Shown: piece by piece, positions 5,202 to 17,810 of the stretch
How positions within the stretch are numbered: the stretch's first letter is position 1
Layout of the letters: every line of letters begins with the position of its first letter
Source: a virus
Lineage: Duplodnaviria; Caudoviricetes
Reading direction: 5' to 3' (one strand)
Virus record (IMG/VR): IMGVR_UViG_3300024265_000005
Span: 1 to 55,461 of that record
DNA length: 55,461 nucleotides
Notes under the pieces: generated by a model
Seen by the model: the letters and a program-made list of their open reading frames with translations, nothing else
The model's database searches: none
Told to the model about the DNA's origin: nothing
Position numbers and translations under genes: made by a program

Positions 5202-5639
5202 ATGAAAGTAGGATTAAAGAGAATTGTCGCCAAGATAACTCAAGGTGATGAGTACGGCGTTTACCGTGAAACTGAAGAACACGATCAATATTTTTTAATG
5301 TTCGCTGTTACTACATACAAAGAAGTAATTAGCTATGGAAAAGGAGTAGCTAAAGTTCTTGGTTTAGCTTTTGAATGTTATGCAGATGAACCAATTTCTC
5401 CAGAAAAAGATGGACAAAAAGAAAAGCAAAAGCAAAAAGAATTGAAAGACAAAGCACAATGGGAAATAACTTTAGATAATTGGTTCAGCAAAGGCAAGTA
5501 TCCTTCATCTAAATTCATGAACGAAAAAAGATGGTCTTATTGGTTTTCGATCGGTGGTGAAAAATCTACAGATGGAAGTAAAACATTCGAACCTCCTAAA
5601 AAGAAAAAGCTCAGAGCAAAAGTGAAAAGGAAAAAATAG
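5202..5639 (+). CDS. Hypothetical early protein
   Basis: 145 aa ORF with AAGGA RBS, first gene after P1. Confidence 0.7.
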   Translation: MKVGLKRIVAKITQGDEYGVYRETEEHDQYFLMFAVTTYKEVISYGKGVAKVLGLAFECYADEPISPEKDGQKEKQKQKELKDKAQWEITLDNWFSKGKYPSSKFMNEKRWSYWFSIGGEKSTDGSKTFEPPKKKKLRAKVKRKK

Positions 5640-5640
5640 A

Positions 5641-5838
5641 ATGTCAGCGTGTGAAAAATGTTGGGCTGATGCAGGTCGTCGAGCTCAAATTTCCGGTCGT
5701 TCTCAAACAGAATGTTATGCTGAATTCCTTGAAGAGCGCAAAAATAATCTTTGTTCAGAAAAAGAACAGAAAGGAGATCTAAATGAAAATTCAATACAAA
5801 AATCTAAAACTACAAAAGAAGACTTCGAAGTTGATTGA
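5641..5838 (+). CDS. Small Cys-containing hypothetical protein
   Basis: 65 aa, CxxC near the N-terminus, starts 1 nt after previous stop. Confidence 0.55.
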   Translation: MSACEKCWADAGRRAQISGRSQTECYAEFLEERKNNLCSEKEQKGDLNENSIQKSKTTKEDFEVD

Positions 5839-6652
5839 GCAAGCGAATGAAATTCTTGCTGAGTACGAAGATCAAGGTTTTATCCTCACTGTTCGTCAAG
5901 TCTATTATCAATTTGTCGCTAGAGGTTTAATTTCGAATTGTCTCAAATCATATGGGTATGTCGGTGCTGCTTTGAACAAAGGAAGATTGGCAGGCTTGAT
6001 CGACTGGTCATTGATCGAAGACAGAACAAGAAATCTTGCAGGCAATTCGCATTGGAATAGTCCTTCTGAAATTCTGATGTCTGCAGCATTTTCATATAAA
6101 CTTGATTCCAGAGAAGATCAAGAATATAAAATCGAAATTTGGATTGAAAAAGATGCTCTTGTTGGAATGATCGAACCAGTTTGTGTAGAACTTGATCTTG
6201 ATTATTTTGCTTGTCGAGGTTTTGTAAGCCTGAGTGAAATGTGGAGAGCAGCACAAAGATTGAAAAATGAAAATTGCATTATTCTTCATCTCGGCGATCA
6301 TGATCCTTCTGGCATAGATATGACCAGAGATATTCAAGACCGACTCGTGACTTTCGGCTGTGATAATCTTGAAGTCAAAAGAATTGCTTTGACTATGGAT
6401 CAGATTAAAGAATTCAACCCGCCACCGAATCCTGTCAAACTTTCAGATTCACGTGCTCGCGATTACATAATAGAATATGGCAGCGAATCATGGGAGCTTG
6501 ACGCACTTGCTCCAGACGTGCTGGAAAAATTGATCAGAAAGCATGTAGCTGATTTCACTGACGAAAGCAAAAGACAGAAATTATTGGATAGGCAGCAACA
6601 AGAAAAAGAACAGCTAGAGCATGTTGCTGAAAATTGGGAGGATTATCGCTAA
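5783..6652 (+). CDS. TOPRIM-domain protein, topoisomerase VI-A/Spo11/DUF2399-like
   Basis: N-terminal TVRQVYYQFV winged-helix-like segment; IEIWIEKDAL and GDHDPSG TOPRIM motifs; WELDAL. Confidence 0.8.
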   Translation: MKIQYKNLKLQKKTSKLIEQANEILAEYEDQGFILTVRQVYYQFVARGLISNCLKSYGYVGAALNKGRLAGLIDWSLIEDRTRNLAGNSHWNSPSEILMSAAFSYKLDSREDQEYKIEIWIEKDALVGMIEPVCVELDLDYFACRGFVSLSEMWRAAQRLKNENCIILHLGDHDPSGIDMTRDIQDRLVTFGCDNLEVKRIALTMDQIKEFNPPPNPVKLSDSRARDYIIEYGSESWELDALAPDVLEKLIRKHVADFTDESKRQKLLDRQQQEKEQLEHVAENWEDYR

Positions 6653-7011
6653 TGAAAAGGATTGGAATAATTGGATCACGAAAAAGAAATAGTGGCAATG
6701 ATTATCAAAAAATCAAAAATACTTTTATGCGTGTAGCAAATGCAGATGACATTATTGTAAGTGGAGGTTGTCAAGAAGGAGGTGATCATTTTGCTGAAAT
6801 AATAGCAGCACAATTCAGTATACCAACAGAAATTTTCAGACCTGAATGGAAAAAGTACGGTCGCAGTGCAGGCTTTATTCGGAATACTGACATTGCAAAA
6901 ACAAGCGATATACTGATTGCGTGCGTTGCTGTCAATCGAAAAGGTGGTACTGAAGACACAATAAAAAAATTCAAGAAGTTTCATCCTGAAGGCAGGTTGA
7001 TTTTATGCTAG
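6652..7011 (+). CDS. SLOG-family protein (YspA/DUF2493-like)
   Basis: IGIIGSR, VSGGC..GGD, AGFIRN, GGT motifs; ATG overlaps the previous stop. Confidence 0.8.
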   Translation: MKRIGIIGSRKRNSGNDYQKIKNTFMRVANADDIIVSGGCQEGGDHFAEIIAAQFSIPTEIFRPEWKKYGRSAGFIRNTDIAKTSDILIACVAVNRKGGTEDTIKKFKKFHPEGRLILC

Positions 7012-7322
7012 GAAAGAAAGGACAGATTATTGATAAATCGCATTCACAAGGTCTCGGAGTCTGTCAGATGTGGATGAAACTTTTCGAAGAGAATGAAGAA
7101 TATTTTCATGCTAAGCAATACGACAAAGTTAAGACGGACAAAGAAATTACTGCAAGCATGCTGACTTTTTTTCCTAATCGTAAAACTTCTAAAATATTTC
7201 AGTTCGTTCACAAAGTACGAGGACGATACAATCGTGGATGCTTGCTTAAAGATATGAAACCGAAAATTCAAAGCTTTAAATATTTCTACAATAAAAAAGG
7301 CAAAATAGAAAGGAGAAGGTGA
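7005..7322 (+). CDS. Basic hypothetical protein, paralog of the core domain of 9779-10417
   Basis: GLGV..W..LF..N / TD..I.......FP.R..S.IF..V..VR.RYN.G.L pattern shared with the second copy. Confidence 0.75.
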   Translation: MLGKKGQIIDKSHSQGLGVCQMWMKLFEENEEYFHAKQYDKVKTDKEITASMLTFFPNRKTSKIFQFVHKVRGRYNRGCLLKDMKPKIQSFKYFYNKKGKIERRR

Positions 7323-7323
7323 A

Positions 7324-7509
7324 ATGAAGAATCAAATCATAACTATTGAAAAGACGTCTAAAATATATAAAGGCGCTACAGCCATTGGCGTCTGCATGAT
7401 TATCGGCGGTATCATGACAATGGCTTCATCAATTGGAGAAGTCCTTGTGATGCTTGGCGTCATACTTTGTATTTACAGTTCGATTGGTGCGTGGTGGAAT
7501 AACGGTTAA
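7324..7509 (+). CDS. Small two-TM membrane protein
   Basis: 61 aa, two hydrophobic helices, AGGAG RBS. Confidence 0.7.
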   Translation: MKNQIITIEKTSKIYKGATAIGVCMIIGGIMTMASSIGEVLVMLGVILCIYSSIGAWWNNG

Positions 7510-7527
7510 ATTCTGCTTGCACCTTTA

Positions 7528-7584
7528 AGTCGAAACGCGATACGGAGATCGTGTCCACAAGTAGAAGCTTGTGCTGATGAGACT
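7528..7584 (+). ncRNA. Hammerhead ribozyme, type II; predicted cleavage after GUC at 7555
   Basis: AGUC-GAAA-stem III (ACGCGAU/AUCGUGU)-C-stem I (CACAAG/CUUGUG)-CUGAUGA-GACU; all core nucleotides and three stems present; intergenic. Confidence 0.88.
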
Positions 7585-7620
7585 CAGTAAGTCTTACGAA
7601 TACTTATAGGAGATAAAAGG

Positions 7621-8007
7621 ATGACTACTCAAGAAAACAGATGGGCGTTTATCGCTATTGTGTGTGTTTTGATCTGTTTTATGACTCTATGTAGCGGCTG
7701 TGAGCCAATGACAACAAGACAGAAGTGGATGTTCGGTAGCATGTGTATGGCGCAGTGGGCTGACTACGAGAGTACTAGAAAAGGTCACCTGGAAAGAGAT
7801 GATGGTCCTTGGAAAGAGGCCAGTCCCTTCCTTGACGATCATCCCAGCCGGGATCAGGTGTTCCTGCTGAAACTTGGAGCAGTCGCGTTCTTCTGGGGTC
7901 TCGGTGAATTGGACCCGGACCACCGGGAACTCTACTATACTGTCGGGATCGTAAGCGGTGGAGTTAACGCGATACGTAATGATCACATATATGAAGATCG
8001 GTTTTGA
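7621..8007 (+). CDS. Membrane lipoprotein-like protein
   Basis: Hydrophobic N-terminus ending in LCSGC; ADYESTR..EASPFL motif; two further hydrophobic segments. Confidence 0.7.
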   Translation: MTTQENRWAFIAIVCVLICFMTLCSGCEPMTTRQKWMFGSMCMAQWADYESTRKGHLERDDGPWKEASPFLDDHPSRDQVFLLKLGAVAFFWGLGELDPDHRELYYTVGIVSGGVNAIRNDHIYEDRF

Positions 8008-8010
8008 AAA

Positions 8011-8052
8011 GTCCGTTGCTACGAGGCGGCGCTGATGAGACTCAGTAAGTCT
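8011..8052 (+). ncRNA. Partial hammerhead (GUC, stem I, CUGAUGA; no adjacent GAAA/stem III); 22-nt repeat of 7573-7594
   Basis: GUC-cgttgct/ggcggcg stem-CUGAUGA-GACU; gctgatgagactcagtaagtct identical at 7573-7594 and 8031-8052. Confidence 0.6.
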
Positions 8053-8076
8053 CGCAAATGATTCATAGGAGATAGA

Positions 8077-8781
8077 ATGATGAAAAGAATGATAGCAACA
8101 ATTTGTTTAGTACTGGCACAGAGTGCAGTCGGTCTGACACCGATTGGAAATCCGACAGTAAAACCAAACGACGGATGGCAAGCAGCTTTCAATTATGTGC
8201 ATTCTTCGCAAGACGTGGAACTGTCTGGCTACGGATTGACCGGAACAGGAGACATCACGGTTAATGATTTCCTAGGAGAAATTGGTGCAAACGTAACGGA
8301 AGATTGGTATTTGGCATTTCTTATAGGGCTTGGAAAAGCGGATATCGATGATGTTGAATTCAACGGCGTAAAGATTGGTGCTCGTGCAAAGCACACGTTC
8401 ATTCGTCAAGAAAAAGTTGATTGGTCTTCTTCGTTCAACATATTTCTTTCCAATTTCGCCGAGGACGTATCTTTGCCTGATATTCATCGAAAGGTTCAAG
8501 TCGATGTCACTTATATGGAGATGACTGTTGCAATTGGTCCGACCTTCCACATAACGGAGGATGTAGATTTATACGGCGGACTTGGACTTCATTATTTGAC
8601 TGGAGAAATGGATGTCAACGTTCCAGGGCCGAATCTATCTTTCAACATAGAAAAGGATTTCAATTTAGGAGGCTTCATCGGATTATCTGTCGCAGCGACT
8701 AAGCATATCAGCCTTGACATCGAGGCTCAAATGTTCGAAGATGCGAAGGCAATAGCATTCCGATTTAGCTATCGTTTCTGA
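8077..8781 (+). CDS. Outer-membrane beta-barrel protein
   Basis: Signal peptide, alternating amphipathic beta-strands, C-terminal FRFSYRF beta-signal ending in Phe. Confidence 0.8.
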   Translation: MMKRMIATICLVLAQSAVGLTPIGNPTVKPNDGWQAAFNYVHSSQDVELSGYGLTGTGDITVNDFLGEIGANVTEDWYLAFLIGLGKADIDDVEFNGVKIGARAKHTFIRQEKVDWSSSFNIFLSNFAEDVSLPDIHRKVQVDVTYMEMTVAIGPTFHITEDVDLYGGLGLHYLTGEMDVNVPGPNLSFNIEKDFNLGGFIGLSVAATKHISLDIEAQMFEDAKAIAFRFSYRF

Positions 8782-8803
8782 AACTGTAAGAATCCAGAGA
8801 ATG

Positions 8804-8867
8804 AGTGGGCGGTTGCAGCTAAAAAAGTATGACGCAATTCTGTGAGCTGCGCCGCCTACTTTTCTTT
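8804..8867 (+). terminator. Large-loop terminator-like hairpin
   Basis: agtgggcggt-t-gcagct / agctgc-gccgcctact followed by tttcttt. Confidence 0.6.
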
Positions 8868-9002
8868 GAAAAAACAAGGTTAATATCCCAGAAAAAAATC
8901 ACAAACTCGCAGTGCGGTTTAAATTCCTTCTAAAAAAACAGAAAATTTTCCACTTGTAAGTTGAGGTACTTGCTTGAATTAGAAAATAGTTCAAAAATTC
9001 TT

Positions 9003-9031
9003 TTGCTTTGTTCGCATAATTGTGTTATAAT
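9003..9031 (+). promoter_or_regulatory. Sigma70-type promoter P2
   Basis: TTGCTT-17 bp-TATAAT with extended -10 TG; upstream sequence aligns with P1. Confidence 0.8.
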
Positions 9032-9265
9032 TAGGTTAGTTGTTTGACAAGTTCATAATACGATGGTTGCTGCAAACGGCATCCAAAATTCTGGCAAATC
9101 CGAATGGGCTGTAGTCGGGCGAAAATTCAGGGCTGGAATAAAACGATTTTCTGGGCTGTACGAAACCACACCGAGTTGCTCGGTTTAGGGATCGCGGAAT
9201 GGGCAAGCCACGCTTGAGCTTGTGGGCATGAAGCGGTTGGACGGTTAACGGCAGAGCGGAAAGCC

Positions 9266-9310
9266 AACTCCGAATGGGCAAGACTGGCGGTTCGATTCCG
9301 CTGCGGAGTT
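9266..9310 (+). ncRNA. tRNA-like minihelix 1 (closing stem plus T-arm, no D or anticodon arm)
   Basis: aactccg/cggagtt stem enclosing ggcgg-TTCGATT-ccgct. Confidence 0.6.
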
Positions 9311-9335
9311 TTAACTTTTTGAAGGAGAACGAATC

Positions 9336-9629
9336 ATGGCAACAAAAATAAAAGAAACATGTTGTGAAGAGATAATGGATGGATTTCATTTGCGTAAATG
9401 CGACAAACCTGCTGGACATGGTCCTGATAAAAAGCACTGTTGGCAGCACAATCCGGCAAGGATAGAAAAACAAGCAAAAGAAAAAAATCAACAACGGGAA
9501 GAGAAAATTTGTAAAGAAATGCATATGCTAGCAGAAAGAGAAGACCGACGTCTCCGCATCTCTATTCTTCTTTCCCTTGCCGAAGGAATTTCTACGAAGA
9601 ATTTGAAAGAATGTCAGTTGATAAGTTAA
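9336..9629 (+). CDS. Hypothetical protein with Cys/His cluster
   Basis: 97 aa, CC..C...C.QH pattern, AAGGAG RBS. Confidence 0.7.
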   Translation: MATKIKETCCEEIMDGFHLRKCDKPAGHGPDKKHCWQHNPARIEKQAKEKNQQREEKICKEMHMLAEREDRRLRISILLSLAEGISTKNLKECQLIS

Positions 9630-9637
9630 AAGAAGCA

Positions 9638-9675
9638 GCCCTGAACGGCTCGCAGGTTCAACTCCTGCACAGGGC
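9638..9675 (+). ncRNA. tRNA-like minihelix 2
   Basis: gccctg/cagggc stem enclosing gcagg-TTCAACT-cctgc. Confidence 0.6.
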
Positions 9676-9677
9676 AT

Positions 9678-9767
9678 TATGAGAGATCAAATTGATTCGA
9701 AGCCACCGGGCGCACTTCGGCTAGTTCTTCTTTTAGTCAGAGTCTCTCATACGCCCGGTGGCTTTTT
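9678..9767 (+). promoter_or_regulatory. Pseudoknot / attenuator-like RNA leader
   Basis: 13-bp stem 9700-9712/9752-9764 plus T tract; upstream 9678-9686 is complementary to loop segment 9743-9751. Confidence 0.6.
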
Positions 9768-9778
9768 AGGAGGCTCAT

Positions 9779-10417
9779 ATGAAAGCCAAGAAGAAAAAAT
9801 CTGAACTCCAAGAAGCAATGCAGGAAGTTGGCGATTTAGTTCTCGCTAAAAAAAGGACAAGAGAATATCCTTTCAAGACGAAATGCAAAAATTGTGGACA
9901 CGAAGATGGCATGGCTTCGGATCGTACCGGACTCAATCATCTAGTTTGTTTTAAATGTGGAAAAGTTGGAACAACATCTTACAAAAGGAGCAAGATCATG
10001 GCAAAGAAAAAGGTAAAAGTAAAAAGAGCGAAAGCAAAGAGAGTCAAAAAGGCAAAGACAAAAAAGGCTACACACACAGTTGCACGAGCAGTCGGCAGGA
10101 ACGGCCTCGGCGTTATCGCAACATGGGTTACGTTGTTCAAAGACAACGCCAGAGAAAAATTGACCGACGAAGGCATTAGCAAGGCGATCAAGAAGAATTT
10201 TCCGGGACGTGAATCGGCTATTTTCGACCATGTTCAGGCAGTTCGATATCGTTACAACAAGGGTGCTTTGACGAAAGGCAAAACGCCTGTCGTCGAATCA
10301 GTTCGTTATGGCGCAGACGGCAACGTAGCATCCGCCAGAGGCAAGTCTACTAAGAAGAAGGTTGCCAAGAAGAAGGTTGTCAAAAAGAAAAAGACCAAGA
10401 AAGTCAAAAGAGCCTAA
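9779..10417 (+). CDS. Zn-ribbon fused to a histone H1-like Lys/Ala-rich DNA-binding protein; probable internal start at 9998
   Basis: CKNC..CFKC N-terminal part; second in-frame AAGGAG+ATG at 9998; K/A/V-rich tails flank a globular core. Confidence 0.75.
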   Translation: MKAKKKKSELQEAMQEVGDLVLAKKRTREYPFKTKCKNCGHEDGMASDRTGLNHLVCFKCGKVGTTSYKRSKIMAKKKVKVKRAKAKRVKKAKTKKATHTVARAVGRNGLGVIATWVTLFKDNAREKLTDEGISKAIKKNFPGRESAIFDHVQAVRYRYNKGALTKGKTPVVESVRYGADGNVASARGKSTKKKVAKKKVVKKKKTKKVKRA

Positions 10418-16673: not shown

Positions 16674-17810
16674 ATGGCAAAAAAGAAAAGAAGTTTCAGC
16701 AATCGTAAAGCAGGCATCGGTAAAATGTTCAGCGATGCTAAAAAGCAATTCGAAGAAGAAGGTGATCCTTTTGGTATGAGTGTACCGAATGGTCCGTATA
16801 TCGCTACATTGACTGCGGCAGAAAGGAAAGAGTCAGGCAATGATCGATATATCAGCTGGCAAGCAATTGTCGAAGAAGGCGAACAAGAAGGGCAGGACAT
16901 CAACTGGAGATCAAATCTTACGACTGATGAAAATCTCAAATGGTTGCTTATCAATTTCAGTCGTTTCGGCGTTGATGTCAGTGATTTGGAAATTCAAGAC
17001 GATGGAGATCTCGATCAGATCTTAACTGAATTGGTCGACGCTGCGCCGAAAGTTCGTCTCACTTGCAATAGCGATTCAGGCTATCAGAACGTTTTCATCA
17101 ACAAGTTTATCAGTGCCGAAGGACCAGCTGAAGACGAACCTGACGAGCTCGAAAAAGGTGACAAGGTCGAAGGCGACATCGACGGAACATCGTATCCGGG
17201 TACAGTCAAGAAGATCAAAGACGACCAGATCACTATCGACTTCGATGATGACACCACAGAGACGCTCGATGTTTCAGACGTGACGAAGCTCGAAGAGTCA
17301 GCTTGGTTGGACAAACAAGCTGGTTACAAAAAAGGCAAGACGCTTTATGTCGGTACCATCACAGAAGTCGACGAAGATGCTGGCACTTTCGTGATGAAAA
17401 CGGAAGAAGACAAGACAGTGAAAGGTGACATCGACGATCTTGAAGAACCTGAAGCAACTGAAGACGAACCTGACGAGCTCGAAAAAGGTGACAAGGTCGA
17501 AGGCGACATCGACGGAACATCGTATCCGGGTACAGTCAAGAAGATCAAAGACGACCAGATCACTATCGACTTCGATGATGACACCACAGAGACGCTCGAT
17601 GTTTCAGACGTGACGAAGCTCGAAGCAACTGAAGAAGAGGAAGAAACAGTGGATCTCGAAATCGGAGCAAAAGTCGAAGTCACTTACAAAGGAAAGGAAT
17701 ACACAGGCAAAGTCAAAGCAACCAATGAAGATGACGAAGAAGTAACAGTCTATGTGACAAAACTCAAAAAGAAAGTCACTGTGCCTGTTGATGATATCGC
17801 CATCCTCTAA
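16674..17810 (+). CDS. DUF669-like ssDNA-binding protein with four C-terminal Tudor/SH3-like repeats
   Basis: VPNGPYIATL N-terminal domain in the usual SSB position; repeated GDKVE...YPGTVKK..I.FDD units. Confidence 0.7.
   Translation: MAKKKRSFSNRKAGIGKMFSDAKKQFEEEGDPFGMSVPNGPYIATLTAAERKESGNDRYISWQAIVEEGEQEGQDINWRSNLTTDENLKWLLINFSRFGVDVSDLEIQDDGDLDQILTELVDAAPKVRLTCNSDSGYQNVFINKFISAEGPAEDEPDELEKGDKVEGDIDGTSYPGTVKKIKDDQITIDFDDDTTETLDVSDVTKLEESAWLDKQAGYKKGKTLYVGTITEVDEDAGTFVMKTEEDKTVKGDIDDLEEPEATEDEPDELEKGDKVEGDIDGTSYPGTVKKIKDDQITIDFDDDTTETLDVSDVTKLEATEEEEETVDLEIGAKVEVTYKGKEYTGKVKATNEDDEEVTVYVTKLKKKVTVPVDDIAIL
17128..17625 (+). repeat. 168-bp exact in-frame direct repeat (17128-17295 and 17458-17625)
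   Basis: Direct sequence comparison; offset 330 bp. Confidence 0.95.

Follow-up and report, generated by a model that had tools for sequence, protein, structure and literature searches.

A predicted type II hammerhead ribozyme ahead of a small phage gene and a conserved tail hairpin that competes for its stem II

The window, the whole stretch of DNA analyzed here, is a complete virus record of 55,461 bases with direct terminal repeats from a tailed phage. A type II hammerhead motif lies at 7528–7584 on its plus strand. We put the probability at roughly 80% that this motif is a genuine self-cleaving ribozyme that would process a rightward polycistronic transcript; cleavage is predicted from the sequence. 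Its most likely role is transcript processing that gives the gene at 7621–8007 a defined 5'-OH leader. The site is a member of a large and already described kind of element, the type II hammerheads located just 5' of the ribosome binding site (RBS) in phage gene arrays. By itself it is one more example of a type II hammerhead beside a phage gene.

The first-pass annotation had placed a complete type II hammerhead between two membrane-protein genes, and every element of it was found between 7528 and 7584 on the coding strand. All of the conserved core nucleotides are present, and stems I, II, and III measure 7, 4, and 7 bp. The strands follow the order of the type II permutation (AGUC, GAAA, hairpin III, C17, hairpin I, CUGAUGA, and GACU), with stems I and III capped by loops and stem II open. 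The 3' strand of stem II (AGUC, 7528–7531, positions 11.4–11.1) pairs with its 5' strand (GACU, 7581–7584, positions 10.1–10.4), which includes the C11.1–G10.1 pair (C7531–G7581). Core residues G12-A13-A14 at 7532–7534 lead into the stem III hairpin (7535–7554). This hairpin begins with A15.1–U16.1 (A7535–U7554) and pairs 7535–7541 with 7548–7554 through 7 bp, one of them a G-U, around the loop ACGGAG. C17 is C7555, the last base of GUC 7553–7555, and self-cleavage is predicted between 7555 and 7556, a position that we take from the hammerhead consensus. The stem I hairpin (7556–7573) pairs 7556–7562 with 7567–7573 through 7 bp, counting the closing U-G, has the loop AGAA, and would become the 5'-terminal hairpin on the 3' product. 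The remaining core, C3-U4-G5-A6-U7-G8-A9 (CUGAUGA), occupies 7574–7580. Stems I and III also form in the free-folding prediction. The end of stem II is separated by 36 nt from the ATG at 7621, and the predicted cut is 65 nt ahead of this ATG, a distance that had been proposed and is correct. The Shine-Dalgarno region AUAGGAGAUA (7606–7615, with GGAG at 7609–7612) precedes the ATG, and the same motif occurs after the hammerheads of related phages.

The significance of the motif was determined with a descriptor that requires the conserved core and three helices in type II order. Both strands of the 55,461-base window were scanned, and exactly one site, 7528–7584, matched. The chance control consisted of 1500 dinucleotide-preserving shuffles of the whole window scanned on both strands (3000 strand scans). 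Type II matches of any kind with stems of 3/3/3 bp or longer appeared in 16 of the 3000 scans, and none of the 1500 shuffles contained stems of 4/4/4 or 7/4/7 bp. A covariance model (R1) was then built from 30 gapless type II hammerheads taken solely from other viral contigs. R1 scored the site at 46.8 bits (E 8.7e-12) over its full length, 1–52, and the next-best place in the window reached 12.5 bits. The R1 seed pattern had the stem II sequence of the window fixed and stems I and III and the loops free, so part of this score is shared by construction. These data exclude a chance origin of the motif.

A cmsearch with the Rfam type II model had been suggested as a check, and it was negative: no hit was obtained at the gathering threshold in the whole window. 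The Rfam hammerhead models also gave no hit at E ≤ 10 on 7400–7700, which places the site below both limits for RF02276 (Hammerhead_II; gathering threshold 37 bits). The same model was applied to 35 descriptor-perfect type II sites in eight other phage loci and recovered four, all with a long loop I. Because 31 of 35 clear relatives were missed too, the negative search is a property of the model and not evidence against the site. Short-loop-I type II hammerheads form a large set in phage contigs that is invisible to the current Rfam model, and annotation pipelines will miss most of them. This blindness of the Rfam model may be a new observation.

The plus strand carries all large open reading frames (ORFs) of the window, among them tail fibre, helicase, DNA polymerase, primase, portal, and tape-measure genes. 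A block of small genes (5202–10417) contains the ribozyme, which is flanked by the genes for a 61-residue and a 128-residue protein. The upstream ORF (7324–7509) encodes the small hydrophobic 61-residue protein, and its transcript would become part of the 5' cleavage product. The downstream ORF (7621–8007) encodes the 128-residue protein, which has a hydrophobic segment at its amino terminus and no match in Pfam or PHROG. Strongly hydrophobic segments in both products make the earlier label of membrane-protein genes reasonable. The next gene (8077–8781, plus strand) encodes a 234-residue outer-membrane beta-barrel protein (Pfam OMP_b-brl). Promoter and terminator scans did not rise above background, and the polycistronic transcript is therefore an assumption. 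A blastn search of a phage GenBank collection with 6600–8800 gave no match, and a protein-based search of viral contigs for loci syntenic for the 128- and 234-residue proteins gave no relatives.

Two other products of the small-gene block were assigned. The 125-residue product of the plus-strand ORF at 6634–7011 contains a SLOG/YspA-type domain, with a Pfam YAcAr score of 29.6 bits (cut-off 28.2). The product of 5783–6652, which precedes it, matches a PHROG annotated as DNA topoisomerase (E 1.8e-107).

The pattern AGUCGAAA...GUC...CUGAUGAGACU, which has the architecture and the stem II of the window's site, occurs in at least 119 viral-contig stretches. Among the matches listed, the descriptor confirms at least 179 sites in 112 of 119 stretches, corresponding to at least 168 distinct sequences, and many contigs contain several hammerhead copies each. 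Membership of the window's site in this family is observed directly, as is its position ahead of an RBS. Of 166 distinct sites among the matches listed, 152 have a Shine-Dalgarno sequence, a start codon, and an ORF of 40 codons or more within the next 120 nt of the same strand, compared to 226 of 840 random positions. The spacing to the start codon has a median of 22.5 nt in the family, again among the matches listed, compared to 36 nt at the window's site and 34 nt at a second copy described below.

A tertiary contact between stem I and stem II, either loop-loop or a pseudoknot, is needed for fast hammerhead cleavage at low, cellular Mg2+. Among the matches listed, 89% of the members with a loop I of at least 8 nt can form a 3'-tail pseudoknot of 4 or more Watson-Crick pairs (control 29%), compared to 12% of members with a loop I of at most 7 nt (control 6%). 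The loop I of the window's ribozyme forms no helix of 4 bp or more with its 3' tail; the longest Watson-Crick match is 3 bp, a count that leaves non-Watson-Crick contacts outside. In short-loop type II members (L006, L013, L028, and L053 compared to L014, L024, and L076), loop I seems to be linked to the bases that flank stem II. Loops of the form YCARAUAGG go with U on both sides of AGUC and GACU, and loops of the form GUNA go with A on both sides. This is an uncounted impression, and the association may mark different non-Watson-Crick tertiary contacts.

Close relatives carry arrays of five to eight such ribozymes before small genes, whereas the window has one intact copy. One of these arrays (locus L088 of record G001) contains six R1 matches in 2.5 kb, each ahead of a small gene with a AUAGGAGAU RBS. 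On the minus strand of this locus, a non-coding A/T-rich region of about 500 bases (3030–2500) separates a DNA polymerase I-like gene from the six-hammerhead array and is likely an early promoter region. A metagenome scan for the subfamily returned 17 loci, and 16 of them (41,645 bases) contain 49 R1 sites. An exact 20-mer of the core and tail had no match in the viral contigs searched. The nearest sequences are in L149, L139, and L088, and they keep a stem III loop of ACGGAG or ACGGAA. Pair 7 of stem III is U-A in the window and C-G in L149 and L088, and pair 4 of stem I is A-U in the window and G-C in L139. Both are compensatory changes.

The 44 distinct ribozyme-plus-tail sequences of this lineage fall into two designs. 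Nineteen have a long loop I and a 3' tail pseudoknot. A contiguous tail hairpin of 5–6 bp is present in 14, including the window's copy, with one more sequence combining hairpin and pseudoknot and two having a 4-bp hairpin. The remaining eight scored as neither design, and five of these have the tail CAGGUAGCCUC, which pairs at five of six positions. Pseudoknot-type members (for example in L088, L136, and L145) share with the window the gene arrays, the AUAGGAGAU RBS, the core, and the style of stem III. They differ in having GACA in stem II, a long loop I with UUGGC, and a GCCAA tail that gives a 5-bp pseudoknot, whereas the window's copy has GACU, a short loop I, and a CAG...AGUYUY tail hairpin. 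Thus, a pseudoknot and a hairpin that competes with stem II occur side by side as tail designs in the same gene arrays of one lineage.

The first-pass annotation had pointed out that a downstream AGUC can capture GACU in a GAGACU/AGUCUU hairpin, and this hairpin exists. It consists of GAGACU-CAGUA-AGUCUU (7579–7584 with 7590–7595; −4.1 kcal/mol), and its formation excludes stem II and core residues G8 and A9. In the nearest-neighbour ensemble, the tail hairpin has a probability of about 0.93 and stem II essentially zero. The active fold lies 6.5 kcal/mol above the minimum-energy fold, compared to a family median of 1.8 kcal/mol, and it is disfavoured to this extent or more in 10 of 167 members, both among the matches listed. 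The family median for the ensemble probability of stem II is 0.024 among these matches. A downstream sequence captures the stem II strand as strongly in 4 of the 167, two of them in L088. Capture of stem II with a probability above 0.5 is not enriched across the family (14.4% compared to 16.6% for shuffled tails, among the matches listed), which makes the tail hairpin a lineage trait and not a family rule.

Conservation of the hairpin was scored in all lineage members beginning with CUGAUGAGACUCAG, which comprise 18 distinct sequences including the window's two, and pairs were counted by script. The hairpin is kept in 18 of 18: eleven pair at six of six positions, seven at five of six, and none at fewer. 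Shuffled tails have six of six pairs in 0.8% and at least five of six in 10.4% of cases; sequence relatedness inflates the conservation figures, and the 5' arm is fixed by the core and therefore cannot covary. The 3' arm differs among the 18 only by C↔U exchanges, mostly opposite G, where both bases pair. The hairpin loops vary in sequence and in length (5–7 nt). The pattern fits what selection for the tail hairpin would give. A conserved tail hairpin that captures stem II and serves as an alternative to the pseudoknot in one lineage may be new. No description of such a hairpin in phage type II hammerheads was found in the literature searches, and the alignments of PMC3088659 may already include the variant.

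Type II hammerheads beside phage genes have been known since 2011, when PMC3088659 (Perreault 2011) reported them as common in bacteria, with prophages having multiple ribozymes on either side of individual genes or of short blocks of genes. The processing of long phage transcripts into single-gene mRNAs was suggested there, with cleavage of three tandem arrangements in vitro and of one in vivo. In Desulfovibrio vulgaris, later work found in vivo activity for three type II hammerheads located close to phage-like genes (PMC8782182). According to a 2019 review (PMC6765202), the function of the type II hammerheads beside phage genes was still unresolved. The window's site agrees with the type II class as presented in PMC3088659 and in RF02276 (clan CL00010) in its identical core, its capped stems I and III, and its short open stem II. 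It also lies between phage genes on the coding strand, and its relatives occur in multiples that flank single genes. It differs in its tail: the consensus in PMC3088659, which holds for the majority of sequences and not for all, has a pseudoknot of at least 4 bp that joins loop I to the bases immediately 3' of stem II, whereas the window's site has a short loop I (4–6 nt), lacks this pseudoknot, and folds its tail onto the stem II strand. The core-variant hammerhead of haloviruses HF1/HF2, located 5' of a helicase gene, is similar in lying a few nucleotides before a start codon in an early polycistronic transcript, and a mapped 5' end lies near its cleavage site (PMC3088659). HF1/HF2 are archaeal viruses, their ribozyme is 13 nt from the start codon, and the account in PMC3088659 describes no tail hairpin for it.

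Cleavage, the order of folding, and any effect on stability or translation are what we infer from these features. The three helices would form around the conserved core, and the RNA would cut after C7555. The upstream message, which encodes the small membrane protein (7324–7509), would end in a 2',3'-cyclic phosphate, and the downstream message would start with a 5'-OH at C7556. Since the 4-bp stem II would be the sole link between the two products, they should separate. The freed GACU could then refold into the conserved tail hairpin (7579–7595). The mRNA for 7621–8007 would thus begin with two small hairpins followed by an A/U-rich spacer and an exposed AGGAG. The predicted fold of the 3' product has these features, with hairpin I, the tail hairpin, and an open Shine-Dalgarno region. 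With a 5'-OH end and a terminal hairpin, the message would be expected to undergo 5'-end-dependent decay more slowly.

The resulting leader would be fixed whatever lies upstream, much as in the engineered insulator RiboJ. In RiboJ, a 23-nt hairpin lies between the sTRSV hammerhead and the RBS (PMC8794103), and RiboJ shares with the window this order of parts and a post-cleavage leader that is constant whatever precedes it. RiboJ differs in being synthetic, in using a hammerhead from a plant satellite RNA, and in having a hairpin that is a separate element. The window's hairpin re-uses the stem II strand and two core bases of the ribozyme, and it can form fully only with stem II open.

A further possibility, which we hold tentatively, is that in one lineage the tail hairpin that re-pairs the stem II strand and G8/A9 has replaced the pseudoknot between loop I and the tail and acts as a built-in strand-exchange device. 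If so, the active fold would exist briefly during transcription, and the hairpin would snap shut after the cut. Cleavage would become irreversible and the upstream RNA would be released. The fixed two-hairpin 5'-OH leader would protect and insulate the downstream message. Such an element would be a natural counterpart of RiboJ and possibly a timer that sets the fraction of transcripts cut.

The flanking sequences could also be read as a regulated switch that holds the RNA in an inactive fold and permits cleavage only under some condition, a reading that we consider unlikely. The 3' hairpin would take GACU, G8, and A9, and a 5' stretch would invade stem I or pair with loop I; candidate triggers include co-transcriptional timing, the passage of ribosomes along the upstream ORF, a factor, and Mg2+. 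Both alternative pairings exist, and the predominance of the 3' hairpin over the less stable active fold and its conservation across the lineage are in keeping with a switch. The upstream ORF ends at 7509, two bases ahead of the 5' complement, and from these coordinates a terminating ribosome could cover 7511–7519.

The 5' arm of such a switch fares less well. The first-pass annotation had noted that 7511–7519 is complementary to 7558–7566. The pairing itself is real (8 Watson-Crick pairs and one G-U, −9.5 kcal/mol), and the first four bases of the stretch, UUCU, could pair with the loop I AGAA as well. Its significance did not hold up and is doubtful, as the match is mildly unusual and absent from relatives. 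An equally good complement in a 25-nt flank arises in 69 of 2000 shuffles (3.5%) and in 51 of 2218 other 25-nt windows of the genome, and an equally strong duplex between flank and stem I occurs in 28 of 167 family members among the matches listed. The 9-nt complement is absent from the closest relatives examined. Pairing of loop I with the 5' flank is not enriched in the short-loop members among the matches listed (6% compared to 8% in controls), and matches such as the 4-bp one that the window's loop I has with its 5' flank occur in the family no more often than chance predicts.

Other observations also speak against regulation. No element that would bind a ligand or otherwise act as a sensor is apparent. 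Nearest-neighbour energies omit the tertiary contacts of hammerheads, and stem II is disfavoured in most family members too. A hairpin on the 3' product is equally expected of a leader structure, and the tail hairpin accords with a leader formed after cleavage no less well than with a switch. The hairpin itself is the one specific support for a switch. Processing of the transcript into a message with a defined leader is the reading we prefer.

A second, decayed copy of the hammerhead lies at 8000–8053 on the plus strand, ahead of the 8077–8781 gene. A self-search aligns 8031–8077 with 7573–7618 at 85% identity. The copy reads GGUU-UU-GAAA-AG-UC followed by stem I (8014–8031), CUGAUGA (8032–8038), GACU (8039–8042), and a tail hairpin that extends to 8053. 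It retains GUCC, the stem I hairpin, CUGAUGAGACUCAGUAAGUCU, and the RBS. All six pairs of its stem I differ from those of the first copy with pairing intact. Stem III is missing and C11.1 is lost, so there is no C11.1–G10.1 pair. R1 scores the copy at 10.5 bits (E 0.78) with stem III deleted and two bases inserted. Neither an upstream AGUC-GAAA-stem III nor AGUCGAAA was found near it. A hammerhead without stem III and without G12–A14 in the right context should not cleave.

The RNA pattern led to a relative, L142, with an intact ribozyme (L142:345–409) whose stem I closely resembles that of the second copy. The gene directly after it encodes a protein with 75% identity to the 8077–8781 protein over 234 residues, and another ribozyme follows this gene. 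Eight other proteins of the window had no match in the relative loci that were fetched. The intact ribozyme before the 75%-identical gene and its similar stem I identify the second copy as a decayed hammerhead at the orthologous place. The decay of a neighbouring copy indicates that the ribozyme is dispensable at some positions. Since stem I, CUGAUGA, the tail hairpin, and the RBS are all still present in this copy, the 3' two-thirds of the element can persist without a working ribozyme. Intact and decayed copies before neighbouring genes, together with the intact copy at the ortholog, show these ribozymes being gained and lost gene by gene.

The idea that 7528–7584 is itself a look-alike or dead relic, a consensus match that does not cleave and is kept as a repeated leader module of hairpins and RBS, is highly improbable: the second copy shows that such a module can lack stem III, Rfam gives no hit, and the loop I–3' tail helix is 3 bp at most with no tertiary contact identified, but the first copy has all core positions and all three helices intact, stems of 4/4/4 bp appeared in none of the 1500 shuffles, its R1 E value is about 1e-11, and pairing in stems I and III is preserved by compensatory changes with respect to close relatives.

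Completion of the second copy over a long range or in trans was considered and rejected, as neither AGUCGAAA nor a fitting GAAA with a complement was found. A type III reading, in which the tail hairpin would be stem II closed by a loop, was rejected by inspection for either copy; no GAA with a stem III partner is located 3' of the hairpin in the window or its relatives.

Several further features lie downstream of the beta-barrel gene. About 550 bases (8782–9335, plus strand) lack a convincing plus-strand ORF, whereas the rest of the genome is tightly packed. Promoter-like hexamers lie near 9000–9060, and three copies of the motif CCGAAUGGGC (or GCGGAAUGGGC) are located near 9100, 9197, and 9272. 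The overall fold of 8782–9335 is no better than that of shuffled sequences. Two tRNA-like minihelices on the plus strand (9265–9311 and 9632–9677) consist of an acceptor-like stem of 6–7 bp around a T-arm (GGCGG-UUCGAUU-CCGCU and GCAGG-UUCAACU-CCUGC, respectively) and lack D and anticodon arms. Both fold as drawn, the second with z = −2.3, and a start codon follows shortly after each. ARAGORN detected no tRNA in the window, and Rfam returned only sub-threshold fragments for the minihelices. They could be 3' fragments of tRNA genes, as attachment-site remnants, or processing signals of the RNase P or tRNA-like type. Elsewhere in the genome, an identical repeat of at least 60 bases (CTGAAGACGAACCTGACGAGCTCGAAAAAGG...) is present on the plus strand at 17128–17200 and 17458–17530, 330 bases apart. 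The two copies form an internal direct repeat in a 378-residue acidic protein encoded by the ORF at 16674–17810.
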